The notes: generated from the sequence alone by a model not told the origin. 59,594 bases of DNA from an uncultured Phycisphaeraceae bacterium (GCA_964416845.1 CAYQFV010000003.1:1-59594); one strand, 5' to 3'. Counted from the first letter of the stretch, positions 49,394 through 59,594 are shown. Program-made: numbers and translations.

Positions 49394-50797
49394 TCATGAG
49401 CGTTCTTGGCGGCCGGGTGCGGTATCGTCGCCACCGGTCGTAGAAGGCCGCCGCGGCGGTCTCTCGGACGTGGCGAACGTTTTCTTGCGCCGCAGGATGT
49501 GGTGGTAATGTTGTGCAAACCGGTGCGACTCGTCGCGAACTTGTTGCAACACTCTTAAGGCCTCATTGTTGCGAGAAAATCGCACCGGGGCGCTGCGGGC
49601 CTGAATGTAGACTTCCTCCATGCGCTTGGCGAGCGAGATGACCATGGGCGGCTGAATGTTCATTTCTTCAAACGCTTCTTGGGCAGCGTGAAGCTGCCCC
49701 AAACCGCCGTCGATCAGGATGACGTCCGGGTAGAGTTCTTCGCCGACGGCTGCGTGCCGATATCGCCGCGACACCACTTCACGAATGCTCGCGTAGTCGT
49801 CCGTGCCGATGACCGTCTGAATCTTGAATCTCCGGTATGCATTCTTGAACGGCTTGCCGTCAATGAAGCACACGAGAGAGCCCACGGTCTCCTCGCCCAT
49901 CAGATTGGCAATATCAATGCCTTCAATACAGCGAGGCGGGCGTTCCAGCCCTAGCAATGCGGCGAGCTTTTCGAGACCCTTCGCGGGATCGATGTAAAAC
50001 ACTTCCGGTTGGGCGTCGTCGACAACATCGCCGGACAGCGCCAACGAGTTGATCGCCTTGATTCGGTCTCTCAGGCGGGCAGCCTCTGCGTAATCGCGAT
50101 GGGACGAGGCCTCTTTCATTTCCTTGGTCATCTGCCGAACGACGACACTGCGTTTCGAGGCTAGGAACTTCTTCAACCGCTGAATGTCTTTCTTGTAGTC
50201 CTCCTTCGCAATCAACGCGGCGCACGGTGCAGTGCACTGGTTGATCGCATGCAGCAGGCAAGGCCGAAAGAACCGACGCGATTCGTCACCCTCTGCAATG
50301 TCAAGCTCGCACGTGCGAAACTTGAACACTCTTTGCAGGGCGTTGACTGCGTCCCGCACGCCGGACGGGCTGGAGAATGGCCCGTAGAGTTTACTGCCCT
50401 TCAGTCTTGGCGTGCGTGTTACGAATACAGCCGGAAAGTCGTCACGAGTCGTGATCTCAATGTAGGGGAAGGTCTTGTCGTCTTTCAGCATCGCGTTGAA
50501 CGGCGGCTGAATGTCCTTGATGAGACGGCTCTCTCGCAATAGGGCGTCCACTTCAGTATCGCAGTCGAGGAATGCGACATCGGTGACCATGGTGGCCATC
50601 CGGGCGATCTCCGGACCGCGAGTGTTGAGCAGGTCCGCGGACGGTTGAAAATAGCTGCTCACGCGAGAGCGCAAGTCCTTCGCCTTGCCGATGTACAGCA
50701 CACGGCCTTCGGCGTCCTCGAACAAGTACACGCCTGGCGACTTTGGAAGACTCGCGATCTTCTCGCGAATGCGATCGATTCGGTCTGCGTCATTCAT
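49394..50797 (-). CDS. uvrC: Excinuclease ABC subunit C (no C-terminal HhH)
   Basis: GIY-YIG PGVYLF...YIGKAKDLRSRV, UVR helix, EGIDIA, ILIDGGLGQL, RDESHRFA. Confidence 0.92.
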   Translation of the reverse strand: MNDADRIDRIREKIASLPKSPGVYLFEDAEGRVLYIGKAKDLRSRVSSYFQPSADLLNTRGPEIARMATMVTDVAFLDCDTEVDALLRESRLIKDIQPPFNAMLKDDKTFPYIEITTRDDFPAVFVTRTPRLKGSKLYGPFSSPSGVRDAVNALQRVFKFRTCELDIAEGDESRRFFRPCLLHAINQCTAPCAALIAKEDYKKDIQRLKKFLASKRSVVVRQMTKEMKEASSHRDYAEAARLRDRIKAINSLALSGDVVDDAQPEVFYIDPAKGLEKLAALLGLERPPRCIEGIDIANLMGEETVGSLVCFIDGKPFKNAYRRFKIQTVIGTDDYASIREVVSRRYRHAAVGEELYPDVILIDGGLGQLHAAQEAFEEMNIQPPMVISLAKRMEEVYIQARSAPVRFSRNNEALRVLQQVRDESHRFAQHYHHILRRKKTFATSERPPRRPSTTGGDDTAPGRQERS

Positions 50798-50947: not shown

Positions 50948-52147
50948 CTACTTTCGGGCCGGTATGATGCCCTCGGACGCGAGAGCAGCGACGTCGCCTT
51001 GGGGCAGACCGCTTTCGGTGAGGATGGATTCGGTGTGCTGGCTGTATCGCGGTGCAAAGGGATATTCCGCCGCGGCGCGATCCAGATCCACCGCGGGGGG
51101 CGGGAGCTTGATGGGCTTGCCGTCGGGGCGGCGCGTGGTGGTGAGTACCGGGGCGATCGCCTCCATGTCGCGAACCTGCTGAACGGTGTGGATCGGTGCA
51201 TGCGGTATCTTGTTCTTTGAGAACTCTCGTATCAGTTCTTCAGAGCAGCACGTAGCCGTGACGTTTGCGATGTCCTGGTGGATCGCCGCCCGCTGGGAGT
51301 GGCGGCCTGCGTTGGTGCGGCGAATCTCGCAGTTCAGCGACCGGAACTTCGGGAGTTCGACCAGCCGCAACCACTGCAGGTCGTTGCCGATGGCGATCAA
51401 GATGTGCCCATCCCGCGTGGGATAGACGTTGACGGGTATGAACTTGCGATGCTCGTTGCCGCAACGCGTCACCTCGAGCGTGTCGCAATCGCAGTCGAGC
51501 AAGGGGAGGGTGGTGATTAGCCAGGAGGCTGCTGCTTGCAGCATGGAGACGTGGATCGCACGGCCTTCACCGGTCTCCGCCCGTTCAGCGAGCGCGAGAC
51601 AGACGTTTGCGTAGACCTCATCGCCCGCCTTGAGGTCGACGATGGGTATGCCCGACAGCATGGGCGGTCCATTTGGATCGCCGGTTACCTCCATGAAGCC
51701 GGCCATCGCCTGGATGGCGGGATCGTATCCCGGCGTGTTCGGATATTGCGGTCCCATAGCGGAGATGCCGGCCCAGATGATGTCCGGCTTGGCCTCTTTG
51801 AGCGTATCGTAGTCGATCCCCAGCGCCTGATATCGCGCGGGGAGTGTGTTGCAGCAGAAGATGTCGACATGCAGCGTGGCGATCAACGTCTTGAGCAGCT
51901 CGCGACCCTTGGGGTGCTTGAGGTTCAGCGCGATGGCTTCTTTCCCTACATTCGGCGCGACGAAGTAGGAGCGCCGGTCGTCATCCGCAACCATGCCGCC
52001 GATGTAGCGATTGGGATCGCCGGGCAGGTCCGAACCGTCGGAAGTGGATTCCAGTCGAATGACGCGCCAACCCAGTTGCACAAACCGCAGCGTCGCATAA
52101 CTCAGGGAGAGCGCCTGTTCCATGGAGATGACCGTGCGGCGTTTCAT
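50948..52147 (-). CDS. Class III CoA-transferase (CaiB/BaiF), IaaL-like
   Basis: [36 protein letters not shown]. Confidence 0.85.
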
Positions 52148-54465
52148 GGGCGTTGCCCATCCCGCTGTTTCAACCCGCGTAGAACTCGTTCCGGGGTTAG
52201 TGGCAACTCGTAGAACCTGACACCGGTTGCATTGTACAGAGCGTTGACGATCGCCGCGGCGGTGCAGATGGCCGGCGCTTCGCCGACGCCCTTCGCCCCG
52301 ACCGGCCCCTCGGGGTCGTTGGTCTCGATGAAGTGCATGTCGATCTGCGGGATTTCCGGAGCGGTGACCAACTTGTAGTCGCGGAAGCTTGGGTTCTGCA
52401 CTCGACCATCCTTCACGATCAGGTGTTCCGCGATCGCGTACCCCATGCCCATCACCACGCCGCCCTCGATCTGTCCTTCGATGCCCATCGCGTTGATCAC
52501 CCTGCCGACATCGTGGGCTGATGTCACCTTCAGGATGCGGATGACGCCGGTGCGGGTGTCGACCTCCAACTCCACAACTTGCGTGCCGAACGCATACGAA
52601 GCGGAGACGTCGCCTTTGAATTCGCCGTCCTGCATGACGCTGGGTGGCTCATAGTAGTCGGAGGTGATGACCACGTCGTTCTTGCGGGCGAAGTGCAGCG
52701 AACGAATGAGTTTGCCGAGTTCCAGCAGCGGCTCACCGGTTTCTTGCGTAACAACCCGTCCCTTCCGCAAGTCGAGCGTGCCGGGATCGACCGTAAGTTT
52801 CTCGCCGGCTGCTTTGAGCAGCTTGTCCTTCGCTTTGCGGGCGGCGCCTCTCGCAGAGTTCCCGGCGATGAACGTGGTGCGGCTGGCGTGGACGCCCACG
52901 TCCCATGGCGTGATTTCGGTATCGTTGTTGATGACGGAGATGGCGGAGACCGGCAGGCCAAGTTCCTCGCCGACCAATTGCGCAATGACCGTTTCGGATC
53001 CCTGGCCTATCTCGGTCGAGCCGGTGATCACCGTGACGTGTGCGTGATCGTCAATCTTCAGAATCGTGCCGCACCCGTCTGAGCGATAAATCTTCGCCCC
53101 GCCGCCCACATGGAGCAACGACGCCATCCCAATGCCACGCTTGATGGGACAACATGCGCTGGTCGGGGTGGCCTGAGCTTCGAGATTCGCATCGTGGCGA
53201 GTGACGAACCGGCTGTTTTCGGTTGCGGCGTTCAAGCACTGGGACAAGCCGCACGTGCGAAACACCATGCCCTGCGGCGTGGTTTCTCCCGTCTGCTGAG
53301 CGTTGTGCAGGCGAAATGCCAACGGGTCCATGCCGACCGCCTCGGCCAACTTGTCCATGTGCGACTCGACGGCGAACGTCGCTTGCAGATTGCCGAAACC
53401 GCGGAATGAGCCGCTGTAAGGATTGTTCGTGTACACGACGGTGGTGTGATAGCGACAGTGCGGCACACGATACAGAGACGACACCGTCTGCATGATGACA
53501 AAAGGCGTGGTCGCGCCCCAGGATGTGTAGCCGCCGTTGTCGTGCAACGTCCGACAGTCTCGAAACGTGAGCGTGCCGTCCTTCGCCACGCCGCTGCGTA
53601 AGGTCAGCTCCACCGGCTGGCGTGTCGGAGAAGCCAGAAATTCCTCTTCTCGTGAAAACAGCAGGCGTACCGGTCGGCGGGTTGCTCTTGCCAGGAAGAT
53701 GCAGATCGGCTCGAACGGGTAGATGTCCAGTTTGCTGCCGAACGCTCCGCCGATGACCGGCTGAATCACGCGGATCTTCTCCGGCGGAACATCGATGACT
53801 GGCGCGATTTCTTTCTTGTAGAGGAACGGAACCTGGGTCTGCGAGTGGACGGTGAGGTTGCCCTCGGAATCGAATTGGGCGACCACGCCGCTGACCCCCA
53901 TGCAGCAGTGGGCCACGAAGTGCAATCGAAAAGTGTCCTCGATCACGATGGCTGATTCAGCCTCACCTCGGGCGATGTCGCCATGGCTGTAGTCGTACGT
54001 GAAGGGAACGTTGGTCGGATGCTGGTCATGGATGACGGGCGCTCCGTCCTGAAGCGCCTCCGCAGGCGAGAAAACGGCTGGCAGGTCTTCGTAGTCGACG
54101 TCGATCAGCTTGATCGCCTGCTCGGCGATGTCTTGCGTTTCGGCAGCCACGGCGGCAATCTCATCGCGCTCGCAGCGCACCTTGTCCCGTTTGAGCGGCG
54201 GGTTGTCCCTGCCATGACCGAGCCCCACACCGGGTGTGTCAGCCGCAGTGATGACCGCGTGAACTCCGGGCAACGCCCTCGCCGCACTGGTGTCGATGCG
54301 GACGATTCGCGCGTGCACGCGTTCACTTCGCAGAATCTTGCCGACCAGCATTCCCGGCAGATCGACGTCATGGACGTACTGCGCAGCCCCGGTGACCTTC
54401 TTGGGAGCGTCGAGCTTGGGCACGCGCTTGCCGATCAGTGTTTCTTTCTCGACGGCGGTGGTCAT
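52144..54465 (-). CDS. Xanthine dehydrogenase family molybdopterin subunit, IaaK-like
   Basis: [37 protein letters not shown]; start at ATG 54465. Confidence 0.9.
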
Positions 54466-54959
54466 ACGTGTTCCCTCGACGATGGCCGATTGCGGTCCAG
54501 CGCTGCCGCGATGGCATCGATGATTTTGTGATAGCCGGTACAGCGACACAGGTTGCCTTCGATGCCGCGTTTGATCTGGTCGACGCTGAGATTCGCATCC
54601 CGATTCAAGAGGGATGTGCCCTGCATAATCACACCCGGTGTGCAGAATCCGCACTGGGTTGCTCCGCGTTCGACGAACGCCCGTTGCATCGCGGACAGTC
54701 CGTCGGCAGTCTGCACGCCTTCGATCGTGGTCAGCCTCCGCCCGTCGCAGTCGACGGCAAACATCAGGCAGGCGTTCACAGTCTTTCCGTCAACGAGAAT
54801 CGTGCACGCTCCACACTCGCCTTCGCCGCATCCGTACTTGGTTCCAGTCAGTCTCAACTCGTCGCGGAGCATGGTTAGCGTGTCCGTGGTGACCGGCACG
54901 TCAACACACACTGCATTGCCGTTGAGCGTGAAACTAATCTCTTGCTTGATGCACTTCAT
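54462..54959 (-). CDS. Xanthine dehydrogenase family 2x(2Fe-2S) subunit, IaaJ-like
   Basis: GCGEGECGAC...C and QCGFC...NLCRC. Confidence 0.93.
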   Translation of the reverse strand: MKCIKQEISFTLNGNAVCVDVPVTTDTLTMLRDELRLTGTKYGCGEGECGACTILVDGKTVNACLMFAVDCDGRRLTTIEGVQTADGLSAMQRAFVERGATQCGFCTPGVIMQGTSLLNRDANLSVDQIKRGIEGNLCRCTGYHKIIDAIAAALDRNRPSSREHV

Positions 54960-55806
54960 GCAGCAACCGTTCCGTCAATTCACGAATCAACTGCGTTCGA
55001 TACCACGCCGACGCACGCACGTCGGAAATCGGCGAAACCTCCTGCGCAGCCACCTGCGCGACTTCCGCGATGTGGGTGTCGTCCAGCGCGACGTCTGCCA
55101 GGGCAGCCTCGGTTTTGCGCCCGCGAATCGGAGTCGGCGCGACCGCCCCAAACGCAACCCGAGCATCCTTGAAGGAGCCGTTCTCCTTCACGCCCGCGAG
55201 TCCGACCGAGACCACGGCGATATCCAGCGCCGGCCGGGTACCGAACTTGTGGAATCTGCACACTGTGTGCGGCTTGGGCAGGGGAAACTCGACCGCCGAC
55301 AGAACCTCATCACACTCGATACGAGTCTTGCCCGGGCCGACGAAAAAATCGCAGAGCGGCACGCGACGGCACACCACGCAGCCGTTTCGCCACGATGCTA
55401 ACTCGACTTCAGCGTCCAGCAAAAGCAACGGAATAATCATGTCACCTGCGGGGGAAGCGTTGCAGATGTTGCCGCCGATGGTGGCTGCGTTACGCACCTG
55501 CCCGCTGGCGAAGCAATCCGCCGCCTGAACCACGACATTGGCCGCCTGTCTGAGAAACTCGCTGGCGAGAATATCAGTGATTGACGTCAGCCCACCGATG
55601 CGAACTACATCGTCCGATTCACTGATACCCCGGAGATCGGCAATGCGGTTGACGTTGACCAGTGTCGGTCGAAGCGGACGCGCGCCGGCGCGCATCTGTG
55701 GCAAGACGTCCGTCCCGCCGGCGAACATCGTCGCCGGGCCTTCGGCGAGGATCTGCGTCACCTCGAGGAGCGATTCGGGGACTTCGTATCGTTCGACAAC
55801 TTCCAT
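54934..55806 (-). CDS. Xanthine dehydrogenase family FAD subunit, IaaI-like
   Basis: AGGTD, QVRNAATIGGNICNASPAGD, GAVAPTP; no 4Fe-4S insertion. Confidence 0.92.
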   Translation of the reverse strand: MEVVERYEVPESLLEVTQILAEGPATMFAGGTDVLPQMRAGARPLRPTLVNVNRIADLRGISESDDVVRIGGLTSITDILASEFLRQAANVVVQAADCFASGQVRNAATIGGNICNASPAGDMIIPLLLLDAEVELASWRNGCVVCRRVPLCDFFVGPGKTRIECDEVLSAVEFPLPKPHTVCRFHKFGTRPALDIAVVSVGLAGVKENGSFKDARVAFGAVAPTPIRGRKTEAALADVALDDTHIAEVAQVAAQEVSPISDVRASAWYRTQLIRELTERLLHEVHQARD

Positions 55807-55859
55807 AGTCCTACCGTTCAGATGACCGGCCGAGTCGCGGATTCAATCCTAACCAGCCA

Positions 55860-57470
55860 CTAGACACGCACCGGCTCCTCGTATCGTCCGTAGACTTCAA
55901 CCAAACATGCGGTCAGTTCGCCGACGGTGGCATACGCTTGGACGGCGTCGATGATTGCAGGCATGACGTTCCGCCCGGCGGATGCGTCATCGCGAACCCG
56001 CTGCAAAGTACGTTTTACGTCGTTGTTGTTCCGTTCAGCTTTGATACGCTCCAAACGCTGTACCCGCTCGGCACAAGCGCTTTCGCTGAACGAATGAAAC
56101 TCGACCTGTTGCTGCTCCTCTTCGACGCGGTAGCAGTTCTTTCCAACCTTTCGAATCTCGCCGCTTTCCAGCTTCTTTTCCCGTTCGTAGGCCTGTTTCG
56201 ACACCTCATTCTGAATGTGGCCTTCGGCGATGCCGCGAACAATGCCGCCCCGCTCGTCGACTTCCTTCATCTCCGCCCGAATCTTCTCTTCCATCTGATT
56301 CGTCAAGGTCTCGACGTAGTACGACCCCGCGAGCGGATCGACCGTGTCGCACAAGCCCATCTCTTCCATCAGTATCTGCATCGTACGCAGTGAAATCCGC
56401 GAAGCCTTCTCCGACGGAATCGTGTATGCCTCGTCGTAACAGCACAAAGCCATCGTCTGCGTTCCGGACAGAGCGCTGATCAGCGCGTAGTACGCGCCGC
56501 GAACGATGTTGTTCTCAGGCTGTTCAATGGTCAGACCGGCTCCGCCGCCGCCGGCGATCATGCGCATCCACATCGAGCGCGGGTCTTGGGCGTCGTACTC
56601 GTTCTTGATGATCTTCGCCCAGCACCGACGTCCGGCGCGAAACTTGGCGACCTGTTCGAACAGATTGCCGTGCAGATCGAAGTTGAACGACAGCCGCGAG
56701 GCGAAATCATCGATCTTCAGGCCTCTCTCCAGCAAATGGTCGATGTACGCCCGGGCGATGCAGAACGCGTAGGCCATCTCCTGCACTGGAGTCGCTCCGG
56801 ACTCGCGGATGTGGTAGCCACACACGCTCACCGGGCTGTAGAGCGGGGCGTGCTCCGCACAGTACAAGACCGTGTCGCCCACCAGCTTGATCGACGGCTC
56901 AACTGGGAAGACCCACGTGCCGCGACCGATGAACTCCTTGAGGATATCATTCTGGGCCGTTCCGCGCAGTTTTCGAATGTCGTATCCGCGCTTCTGGGCC
57001 ACGGCAAAATACATCGCGATCAGTGTGGCCGCTGCTCCGTTGATGGTGAGAGAGACAGTGATTTTCTCAAGGTCAATGCCATCGAACGCGGTCTCGAGAT
57101 CCTCCAGCGTGTCGACCGCCATCCCCACGCGGCCGACCTCTCCTGCAGCGGCGGGATCGTCGGAGTCCAGTCCGTTCTGGGTCGGCAGATCGAACGCCAC
57201 GTTCAATCCCGTCTGTCCGTTGTCGATCAGATAGCGGAAGCGCTTGTTCGTTTCCTGCGGCTGGCCGAAGCCGGCGTACTGCCGCATGGTCCAGGGTCGC
57301 CGGCGATACATGTACTTGTGAATGCCGCGCGTGAACGGAAACTCGCCGGGATCGCCGATGTCGTCAACGCCACCGCTGGCCTCGACGTCGGCCGGCGTGT
57401 AGATCGGCTTAATCTCCAGGTTCGACTCGTTGACCAGCGGTTCGATATCCGGCGCTTTCTTGCGATTCAT
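55860..57470 (-). CDS. Coenzyme B12-dependent acyl-CoA mutase, substrate-binding subunit, IaaH-like
   Basis: PFTRG, WTMRQYAGF, QNDILKE, GYHIRE, DPLAGSYYVE; atypical pocket residues. Confidence 0.9.
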   Translation of the reverse strand: MNRKKAPDIEPLVNESNLEIKPIYTPADVEASGGVDDIGDPGEFPFTRGIHKYMYRRRPWTMRQYAGFGQPQETNKRFRYLIDNGQTGLNVAFDLPTQNGLDSDDPAAAGEVGRVGMAVDTLEDLETAFDGIDLEKITVSLTINGAAATLIAMYFAVAQKRGYDIRKLRGTAQNDILKEFIGRGTWVFPVEPSIKLVGDTVLYCAEHAPLYSPVSVCGYHIRESGATPVQEMAYAFCIARAYIDHLLERGLKIDDFASRLSFNFDLHGNLFEQVAKFRAGRRCWAKIIKNEYDAQDPRSMWMRMIAGGGGAGLTIEQPENNIVRGAYYALISALSGTQTMALCCYDEAYTIPSEKASRISLRTMQILMEEMGLCDTVDPLAGSYYVETLTNQMEEKIRAEMKEVDERGGIVRGIAEGHIQNEVSKQAYEREKKLESGEIRKVGKNCYRVEEEQQQVEFHSFSESACAERVQRLERIKAERNNNDVKRTLQRVRDDASAGRNVMPAIIDAVQAYATVGELTACLVEVYGRYEEPVRV

Positions 57471-57868
57471 CGTACGTTCTCACGAATGAAATCAGCGATG
57501 GCTTGCATCTGCGTACCGACGGCGAAGACTGCATCAACGCCGAGTTCCTTCAGGCGTGCATGATCCCGCTCGGGGATGTTACCGCCAACGATCCACAGCA
57601 TGTCGCTCGCCCCGTGGTTCCGCATCAGTTGTGAGACTTGTTCGCAAATGGGGATGTGCGAACCGGAGAGAATTGACAGCCCCAGTACGTCCGCTCTCTC
57701 CTCAACGGCGCGACGGACGATCTGTTCGGGCGTTTTCTTCAGGCCGGTGTAGACCACGTCAAAACCCGCATCCATCAGCACGCGAGCGACGACTTTCGCA
57801 CCCACGTCGTGACCGTCCAGGCCGGGCTTGGCCAGCAGAACCCTGATTCGCTTCTCCCGGTCGCTCAT
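57467..57868 (-). CDS. Cobalamin-binding mutase small subunit, IaaG-like
   Basis: KPGLDGHDVGAK (DxHxxG), GLSILSGSH, VGG. Confidence 0.93.
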   Translation of the reverse strand: MSDREKRIRVLLAKPGLDGHDVGAKVVARVLMDAGFDVVYTGLKKTPEQIVRRAVEERADVLGLSILSGSHIPICEQVSQLMRNHGASDMLWIVGGNIPERDHARLKELGVDAVFAVGTQMQAIADFIRENVR

Positions 57869-58995
57869 GCCGTCAGATCCTTTGCAATGATCAGCTTGTT
57901 GATCTCGCTGGTCCCGCCGCCGTAGAGCGTGAAACGAATGTCGCGCAAGTAACGCTGAGCGGCGAATTCCTTGGCGTAACCGTACGAGCCGAGGATGCGG
58001 GTCGCGTGATCACAGGTCTCGACGGCCCGCTCGGTCGCGAACAACTTGGCCATCGACGCTTCGCGCGTGCATGGTCGACCCTGATCCCTCAGCCACGCCG
58101 AGTAGTGGACCAGATGCGTGGCAGCTTCGAGGTTCGTCGCCATGTCGGCAAGCTGCATCTGAATCGCCTGAAACTTGTTGATCGGTCTCCCGAACTGCCG
58201 GCGCTGCGCGGAGTACGCTAGCGCGTCTTGCAAAGCAGCACCAGCCACACCGTTGGCGAGTGCTCCGGTCATGATCCGAATGTCGGCCAGGATTTCTCTC
58301 AAAAGGCGTTCGCCTTCGCCTTCTTCGCCAAGCCGGTGATCCTCCGGGACGAAACAATTCTCGAAGAACACTTCGGACGTCGGGGAGGCGAGGCAACCCA
58401 TCTTTTCGATCGCCCTGCCGACTTTGAGTCCGGCGAATTCCTTTTCCACAAGGAAGATCGTCAGACGTTTGTCCTCGCCGCTACGGGCAAACACGGTGAA
58501 GAAGTCCGCCAGCGGCGCCGAGGTGATCCACGTCTTCTGGCCGTTGAGGCGATATCCGCCCTCGACCTTCTCAGCAAACGTGACGATGGCCGACAGGTCG
58601 CTGCCTGCATCGGGTTCGGTGATACAGATCGTTCCGATCTTCTCGCCACGAATCGCGGGCTTGAGCAATCGTTCGTGAACGTCGTCGTTGCCAAGGGCGA
58701 ACAGGAAGTGCGTGCCCATCAGGGATTGCATGGCTGCCCCGGCTGCGACGGAGAGGGAACCGCGGGCGACTTCGCTGATCGCCAGGCAGAAACTCAAGAG
58801 ATTCTGCCCCGCGCCTCCGAGCACTTCGGGATACCGCAGGCCAAACAAGCCCAGGTCGGCTAGTTCCCCGAACAGTTCCCTGGGAAATTCGCCGGCCTCA
58901 TCAATGGCTGCTGCCTGCGGCTTGATCCGCTCATCGCAGAAGCGACTGAACGTGTCCCGCAGGAGCTGCTGATCTTGTGATAGCTCAAAATCCAT
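57865..58995 (-). CDS. Acyl-CoA dehydrogenase family protein lacking catalytic Glu, IaaF-like
   Basis: ITEPDAGSD, LNGQKTWIT, QFGRPI, FQAIQ, LGSYGY, YGGGTSEI. Confidence 0.88.
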   Translation of the reverse strand: MDFELSQDQQLLRDTFSRFCDERIKPQAAAIDEAGEFPRELFGELADLGLFGLRYPEVLGGAGQNLLSFCLAISEVARGSLSVAAGAAMQSLMGTHFLFALGNDDVHERLLKPAIRGEKIGTICITEPDAGSDLSAIVTFAEKVEGGYRLNGQKTWITSAPLADFFTVFARSGEDKRLTIFLVEKEFAGLKVGRAIEKMGCLASPTSEVFFENCFVPEDHRLGEEGEGERLLREILADIRIMTGALANGVAGAALQDALAYSAQRRQFGRPINKFQAIQMQLADMATNLEAATHLVHYSAWLRDQGRPCTREASMAKLFATERAVETCDHATRILGSYGYAKEFAAQRYLRDIRFTLYGGGTSEINKLIIAKDLTA

Positions 58996-59009
58996 TATCG
59001 CATCGTTCT

Positions 59010-59594
59010 TCAGTTTTGCCGGCGATGTCTCCTCTTTGACGTCGCCTCTTGATCGATCGCGAGGGAGACTTCGTCGAGCACAACGCCGTAGTCGTCCCGC
59101 GCAGACTGGATGGAAATTACACCGTTTCGCACTTCCTCGGCGACGCGCTCTGCGGAGCGATCGTGGGGATCGCCAAGACCGCCGCCACCGCCGGCCTGTT
59201 GGTGGTAAATCGTGCCGGCTGGAAGACCGGTGACCAGGTCGAGGCTACGTGGGATCTTCTCGGTACCGTTCGGCAACCGCAGCTTGATAGAATTCAGGCT
59301 GCCGTCGCCCCCGCCGTGCACACCGAAGGCCGCCTCGACGTCGCCATCTCCGAAGACGACCAGCTGGGTGTCATCGGCCCCGATCTCGAAAATGGTCTCC
59401 ACGCCCAGACCGCCACGCCACTGCCCCACACCGGCCGAGTCGCACAGGTACTCGTGCTTGCGCAAGACGTGCGGCGTTTGCTGCTCGAACATCTCGTAGT
59501 CCTGATCCAGCAATCCGCCGGACGCATCGATCATGCCGATGTGATCGTAGCCGTCCACGCCTCGCACCGCGCCCGAACCGCCCTTCAACCCCAT
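59010..59594 (-). CDS. Hydantoinase B/oxoprolinase subunit, C-terminal part (5' truncated), IaaE-like
   Basis: DSAGVGQWRGGLG, GGGGGLGDP, GVISIQSARDDYGV. Confidence 0.85.
   Translation of the reverse strand: MGLKGGSGAVRGVDGYDHIGMIDASGGLLDQDYEMFEQQTPHVLRKHEYLCDSAGVGQWRGGLGVETIFEIGADDTQLVVFGDGDVEAAFGVHGGGDGSLNSIKLRLPNGTEKIPRSLDLVTGLPAGTIYHQQAGGGGGLGDPHDRSAERVAEEVRNGVISIQSARDDYGVVLDEVSLAIDQEATSKRRHRRQN

Follow-up and report, generated by a model that had tools for sequence, protein, structure and literature searches.

The window, by which we mean the whole stretch of 59,594 nucleotides analysed here, carries a minus-strand operon of the iaa type (50948-59594), whose second visible gene encodes an acyl-CoA dehydrogenase (ACAD), P0001. 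Together with this ACAD, one strand holds the gene set of an iaa cluster, namely the mutase IaaGH, a CoA-transferase, a hydantoinase-like protein and a molybdenum enzyme (Table 1). The ACAD stop codon overlaps the start of the B12-subunit gene as ATGA, and the B12-subunit stop and the mutase start are joined in the same manner. The molybdenum hydroxylase belongs to the xanthine-dehydrogenase family; its large-subunit gene starts with the ATG at 54463-54465, which produces a 4-nt overlap with the 2Fe-2S gene, and encodes 773 amino acids, as does its counterpart in the relative L001. The window is the full length of its contig, whose end cuts the lactamase gene; the upstream genes of the operon are therefore absent from the window, in which neither a CoA ligase nor an indolepyruvate:ferredoxin oxidoreductase (IOR) gene is visible; no ETF gene lies near the ACAD. 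Directly downstream of the CoA-transferase gene, a UvrC-like protein of 467 amino acids with GIY-YIG, UVR and RNase H endonuclease domains is encoded (49394-50797, minus strand); the same position past the CoA-transferase is occupied in L001 by glutamate-synthase-like and NADH-dehydrogenase-like redox genes, not by a UvrC-like gene.

Table 1. Genes of the iaa-type operon and motifs of its ACAD, in coordinates of the window
Feature	Position	Strand	Evidence
Hydantoinase B / lactamase beta subunit (IaaE-like), C-terminal 194 aa, cut by contig end	59010..59594	-	PF02538, NF050157
IaaF-type acyl-CoA dehydrogenase (ACAD), 376 aa, P0001	57865..58995	-	three ACAD Pfam domains
Helix-G motif LADIR of P0001, residues 236-240	58276..58290	-	alignment A1 and transitive alignment to 4o5m
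GGG motif of P0001, residues 359-361, in place of canonical YEG	57913..57921	-	HMMER alignments
B12-binding small subunit of acyl-CoA mutase (IaaH-like)	57467..57868	-	PF02310, TIGR00640
Acyl-CoA mutase large subunit (IaaG-like)	55860..57470	-	PF01642 (641 bits), TIGR00641
Molybdenum hydroxylase, FAD-binding subunit	54934..55806	-	PF00941, PF03450
Molybdenum hydroxylase, 2Fe-2S subunit	54462..54959	-	PF01799, PF00111
Molybdopterin-binding large subunit of hydroxylase, 773 aa	52144..54465	-	PF01315, PF02738, PF20256
Family III CoA-transferase (IaaL-like)	50948..52147	-	PF02515 (222 bits)

The relative L001, which is 80% identical and lies on a 110-kb Planctomycetota contig, has the same block of genes, preceded by hydantoinase A and by IorA- and IorB-like genes for an IOR (3555-6109 in L001). 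Its IorA scores 671.9 bits against the equivalog cutoff of 650.9 for TIGR03336, and the L001 gene table contains no CoA ligase. IorAB-like genes upstream of the ACAD, within the flanks retrieved, were also identified in L002, L005, L043, L056, L063, L068 and L075, and in L001, L002 and L005 they stand directly upstream of hydantoinase A; the IorAB-bearing relatives belong to Planctomycetota, Anaerolineales/Anaerolineae (Chloroflexota) and Desulfobacterales-type organisms. This arrangement suggests that the pathway in the IorAB-bearing relatives is fed from tryptophan via indolepyruvate, and not from free auxin. The presence of IorAB and the lack of a visible CoA ligase distinguish the close relatives of P0001 from Aromatoleum aromaticum.

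In our study, species-representative genomes were scanned with an alignment of the GGG-bearing members, and the neighbours of the ACAD genes were sought by tblastn with the cluster proteins of the window. As a result, we identified at least 80 related loci. The B12 subunit and the mutase adjoin the ACAD in nearly every listed locus with enough flanking sequence, and most of the listed loci also have hydantoinase A/B, the molybdenum hydroxylase and the CoA-transferase. The list includes a Ferroglobus MAG (L025), strain NaphS2 (L030) and Desulfatiglandales MAGs, and iaa clusters have been described in lineages related to these three, according to PMC8360864. IaaF-type genes with their partners also occur in loci that carry Gemmatimonadota, Bacteroidetes, Hyphomicrobiales, Rhodospirillaceae, Methanomassiliicoccales and Solirubrobacterales labels (L004, L007, L010, L014, L023 and L049); either IaaF-type genes are spread over a very wide range of phyla, or part of the binning is in error.

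Fold and the two catalytic-glutamate sites

[quoted passage not shown] The N-terminal, middle and C-terminal ACAD domains (PF02771, PF02770 and PF00441) were each detected above their cutoffs, and the AlphaFold2 model (pLDDT 87.6, pTM 0.89) presents a complete ACAD fold that superimposes on human SCAD (8sgs) with a TM-score of 0.95. Low confidence in this model is restricted to the surroundings of the GGG loop and to residues 130-132. The motifs of the cofactor region (TEPxAGSD, R265 and F275-Q276), which are invariant in our alignment A1, are intact in P0001. Public annotation gives this gene no closer name than 'acyl-CoA dehydrogenase' or 'butyryl-CoA dehydrogenase'.

The initial annotation had claimed that both canonical catalytic glutamates are absent from this protein, and our gap-free alignments bear this out. 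Enzymes of the MCAD/SCAD type carry their Glu in the YEG loop; P0001 has Gly360 (57916-57918) at this position, opposite the catalytic Glu in gap-free HMMER alignments to the solved ACADs 1ws9 ('rigEGtsei', GEG), 2dvl and 5lnx (both 'iyEGtsei', YEG). IVD/LCAD-type ACADs resemble P0001 in having lost the Glu of YEG (to GAG or GGG); they differ in placing a Glu on helix G directly before an invariant Arg, as in LDLER and DYER, where P0001 has Ile239 (58279-58281). The latter position was established by a transitive alignment anchored on the invariant Arg240: the IVD-type representative P0148, which carries GAG and LNVER, aligns without gaps both to the solved bacterial IVD 4o5m (DYER, 'eigAGtsei') and, in alignment A1, to P0001, so that Ile239 falls on the site of the IVD-type Glu. 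Proper alignments thus place a Glu at neither base position; a Glu there was one of the outcomes that the initial annotation had named as a refutation of its own reading. It had located LADIR exactly, and it had identified YGGGT correctly as a motif (residues 358-362), with coordinates one base away from the true 57910-57924. We also considered a one-residue shift of register that would put the Asp/Glu at position 238 on the IVD Glu, and rejected it: Arg240 and the conserved Gly that follows downstream are spaced as in canonical ACADs, without an indel.

The same pattern was found throughout a set of 240 homologues, composed of the 120 closest to P0001 and 120 homologues of the ACAD of L011, a Betaproteobacteria MAG. 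The former are 73-91% identical to their query and, where named, come from Planctomycetes/Planctomycetota or Phycisphaerae; the latter are 80-99% identical and, where named, come from Burkholderiales, none of them being labelled Aromatoleum. GGG is kept in all 240 (73-99% identity), and position 239 holds I, V or T, with Asp or Glu in none of the 240. It is important to note that this constancy makes chance or a sequencing error an inadequate account of the double loss.

An ACAD with both catalytic glutamates missing could also be the non-catalytic partner in a heteromeric enzyme, like the base-less subunits of the steroid-degrading alpha2beta2 ACADs, a possibility that the initial annotation had raised against itself. 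A second ACAD gene is indeed present in the fetched flanks of 12 of the 81 listed loci, directly downstream in tandem in the nine that were aligned. The ChsE/FadE28-29-type enzymes are recognised by an adjacent, paired catalytic ACAD gene; the 59.6-kb window contains a single ACAD-like stretch, that of P0001, and the closest relatives (L001-L019) have no second one in the 10 kb around theirs. The aligned tandem copies themselves carry GGG or GAG without a helix-G Glu, so that in these nine loci a catalytic partner could be supplied by neither of the two copies. PMC8360864 describes the characterised IaaF as an active homotetramer with FAD, and the cofactor-region motifs are intact in P0001. 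We therefore regard a non-catalytic role for P0001 as scarcely credible. As a separate observation, the tandem second IaaF-like ACADs (L027, 11193-12326; L053, 11173-12306; also L037, L054, L057, L071, L074, L079 and L081) are 42-43% identical to P0001, and their hosts are Chloroflexota/Anaerolineales and Syntrophobacterales/Syntrophorhabdus-type MAGs; such pairs may indicate a heteromeric IaaF in those lineages.

Clade membership and predicted reaction

A FastTree phylogeny was computed from 166 sequences, of which 42 were cluster-linked ACADs and 124 were single-domain representatives from an exhaustive search. Tandem double-ACAD fusions, which topped the search for representatives because their scores are summed, were left out by length. 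The IaaF of A. aromaticum is not in the tree, where the Ferroglobus MAG and NaphS2 sequences stand in for the published members. P0001 and all the mutase-linked ACADs form one clade, separate from the other ACAD subclasses, that contains 49 of the 166 leaves with a support of 98, and P0001 matches 22 of the 23 positions specific to it. GGG is present in 47 of the 49 clade leaves and in 13 ACADs outside the clade, some of which are of the IVD type. The motif alone is not diagnostic, since an acidic residue (Glu or Asp) occupies the IVD-type site in 10 of these 13; the useful signature is the absence of an acid from both sites, as the initial annotation had rightly checked, and it applies to about 11 of the 117 non-clade representatives. 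Two arginines were also noted in the clade. Arg54 (58834-58836) is invariant in the clade, and so is Arg333 (57997-57999), with 49 of its 49 members; 99 of the 117 other ACADs have Gln at position 333, a residue that in MCAD contacts the FAD of the neighbouring subunit. This may have a bearing on a use of acceptors other than ETF by IaaF.

The existence of those other base-less lineages could be read as a sign that P0001 combines the ACAD fold with a different chemistry, for example that of a desulfinase, of an enoyl-CoA reductase (CaiA/AcrC-like) or of a flavin monooxygenase, and its best NCBIfam matches are indeed acryloyl-CoA reductase and other specialised ACADs. The 3-sulfinopropionyl-CoA desulfinase AcdDPN7, CaiA and PimD share with P0001 an ACAD fold that lacks the catalytic Glu (AGG, SGG, YGG); they differ in belonging to other clades and other operon contexts. 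All NCBIfam matches of P0001 lie well under the curated cutoffs (307.7 against 640, for example), P0001 falls in the mutase-linked clade and outside the desulfinase and reductase lineages, and its operon contains no genes for sulfinyl or betaine chemistry, which makes a change of chemistry most improbable. Membership in three particular families was rejected because the scores are far below the curated cutoffs: the desulfinases (NF042439, 244.7 bits, cutoff 600), the acryloyl-CoA reductases and the glutaryl-CoA dehydrogenases (GCDH; NF045552, 273.3 bits, cutoff 470, with the catalytic Glu absent). GCDH is nevertheless an instructive comparison. Like P0001 in its predicted role, it is an FAD-dependent ACAD that couples oxidation to the loss of CO2; unlike P0001, it keeps YEG, and its Glu370 abstracts the C2 proton before decarboxylation takes place at the gamma position as a second step.

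The closest known counterpart of P0001 is the IaaF of A. aromaticum EbN1 (WP_011236983), characterised by Schuhle et al. in 2021 (PMC8360864) and a member of their benzylmalonyl-CoA dehydrogenase ('BMal') branch. According to that paper, IaaF is a homotetramer with FAD, and its reaction yields cinnamoyl-CoA and CO2 from benzylmalonyl-CoA; it acts on 2-carboxylated substrates only, and it accepts medium-chain alkylmalonyl-CoAs at low rates. The authors report that GGG stands in place of YEG in all IaaF orthologues, and propose that elimination of the 2-carboxyl group takes the place of C2 proton abstraction and that the three glycines form a cavity for the carboxyl group. P0001 and the A. aromaticum protein are alike in the ACAD fold, in GGG replacing YEG, in the lack of a helix-G Glu and in a gene whose direct neighbours in its iaa-type cluster encode a B12 mutase; they are also alike in substrate logic, the product of the mutase being a 2-carboxyacyl-CoA. 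They differ in their hosts, that of P0001 being, by the names of its nearest homologues, an uncultured Planctomycetota/Phycisphaerae-type bacterium. The connection between them runs through iaa-linked homologues at 47-68% identity, and not through direct comparison: P0001 is 59-68% identical to alpha-, beta- and gamma-proteobacterial iaa-linked homologues and 52% identical to that of the Ferroglobus MAG.

The published GGG signature, the iaa-type operon and membership in the mutase-linked clade together support the assignment of P0001 as an IaaF orthologue, that is, a predicted FAD-dependent decarboxylating (2-aminobenzyl)malonyl-CoA (benzylmalonyl-CoA) dehydrogenase of the anaerobic indoleacetate pathway; we put the probability of this assignment at roughly 0.85. 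By analogy with the Aromatoleum enzyme, from which we infer both the reaction and the base-free mechanism, the B12 mutase would convert (2-aminophenyl)succinyl-CoA to (2-aminobenzyl)malonyl-CoA, and the ACAD would then form 2-aminocinnamoyl-CoA by passing the hydride of C3 to FAD, with release of the 2-carboxyl group as CO2. The three glycines would open an apolar cavity for this carboxyl group. Since C2 would lose no proton, neither the MCAD-type nor the IVD-type Glu would be needed. The PDB matches to P0001, by sequence and by fold, include no structure of an IaaF or a benzylmalonyl-CoA dehydrogenase, and for this reason the base-free mechanism stays a proposal. The initial annotation had described IaaF in the same terms, as a decarboxylating dehydrogenase with no need of a base, which agrees with what PMC8360864 proposes and was thus already published. 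It had further taken the double loss of Glu as independent support for the iaa assignment; the signature does back that assignment, with less independence than was claimed, because iaa-linked genes were the ones from which the signature had been defined.

The same oxidative decarboxylation of a mutase-made 2-carboxyacyl-CoA might instead serve a substrate that does not derive from indoleacetate, such as another aryl- or alkyl-succinate, or an N-heterocycle opened by the hydroxylase and the lactamase. The slow turnover of medium-chain alkylmalonyl-CoAs reported for the characterised IaaF in PMC8360864 would agree with this, as would the modest identity of P0001 to homologues from lineages with described iaa clusters and a window that ends before any ligase or IOR gene comes into view. 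We consider it distinctly unlikely, given that the whole gene set fits the iaa pathway step by step, that a molybdenum hydroxylase and a lactamase are sensible only for a heterocycle such as indole, and that in the closest complete relatives the cluster is headed by an IOR alpha subunit above the TIGR03336 equivalog cutoff, which points to indolepyruvate and indoleacetyl-CoA.

A conserved acid at position 238

One residue ahead of the IVD-type site, P0001 has Asp238 (58282-58284), and an Asp or Glu is found at this position in 236 of the 240 homologues. The position is acidic in 45 of the 49 clade members and mostly Gly, Arg or Ser outside the clade; at the neighbouring position 237, the usual ACAD Asp is replaced inside the clade by Ala, Ser or Asn. 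An acid that is conserved in about 95% of the clade, rare in other ACADs and located on helix G next to the IVD-type site could be a displaced catalytic base, in which case the enzyme would be an ordinary proton-abstracting ACAD with a third location for its base. Geometry speaks against this: for an ideal helix, 6.5-7.9 A separate the residue i-1 C-alpha from the place of the carboxylate of Glu(i). The reach of a Glu side chain is estimated at about 5 A and that of Asp at about 3.7 A, so on ideal-helix geometry residue 238 would be out of reach as a base. Helix G is unbroken in the AlphaFold2 model (228-264). Moreover, Asp and Glu interchange freely at position 238, a freedom that one would not usually expect of a precisely placed base, and a few clade members, most of them visibly mutase-linked, have Gly, Gln, Val, Arg or Ala there. 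The restriction of the characterised IaaF to 2-carboxylated substrates, as reported in PMC8360864, is a further point against proton abstraction. The orientation estimated from ideal-helix geometry and the occasional substitutions thus argue against residue 238 as a shifted base, a role that we judge very unlikely.

The conservation of this acid might have another explanation under the IaaF assignment. Asp/Glu238 is a candidate carboxylate with a function in the active site, at a third location on helix G, which could position the 2-amino group of the physiological substrate or destabilise the 2-carboxylate for decarboxylation; this is a tentative idea, and on balance we hold it to be doubtful. 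The portions of PMC8360864 cited here make no mention of residue 238. If the idea is true, the published base-free mechanism would be refined.

Significance for the IaaF subclass

The signature of P0001 and the mechanism of IaaF are already known, and since both were published in 2021, the understanding of ACAD catalysis is unchanged by our results. They confirm a genuine iaa-type pathway in the window and give a specific predicted reaction to a gene with a generic annotation. The IaaF subclass is extended to Planctomycetota, an unusual host phylum, and it is abundant in metagenomes, where hundreds of near-identical signatures occur and the listed loci are labelled with many phyla. For the annotation of such genes, our study provides a rule by which an IaaF may be recognised: a GGG motif, a non-acidic residue before the helix-G Arg, and a neighbouring B12 mutase.
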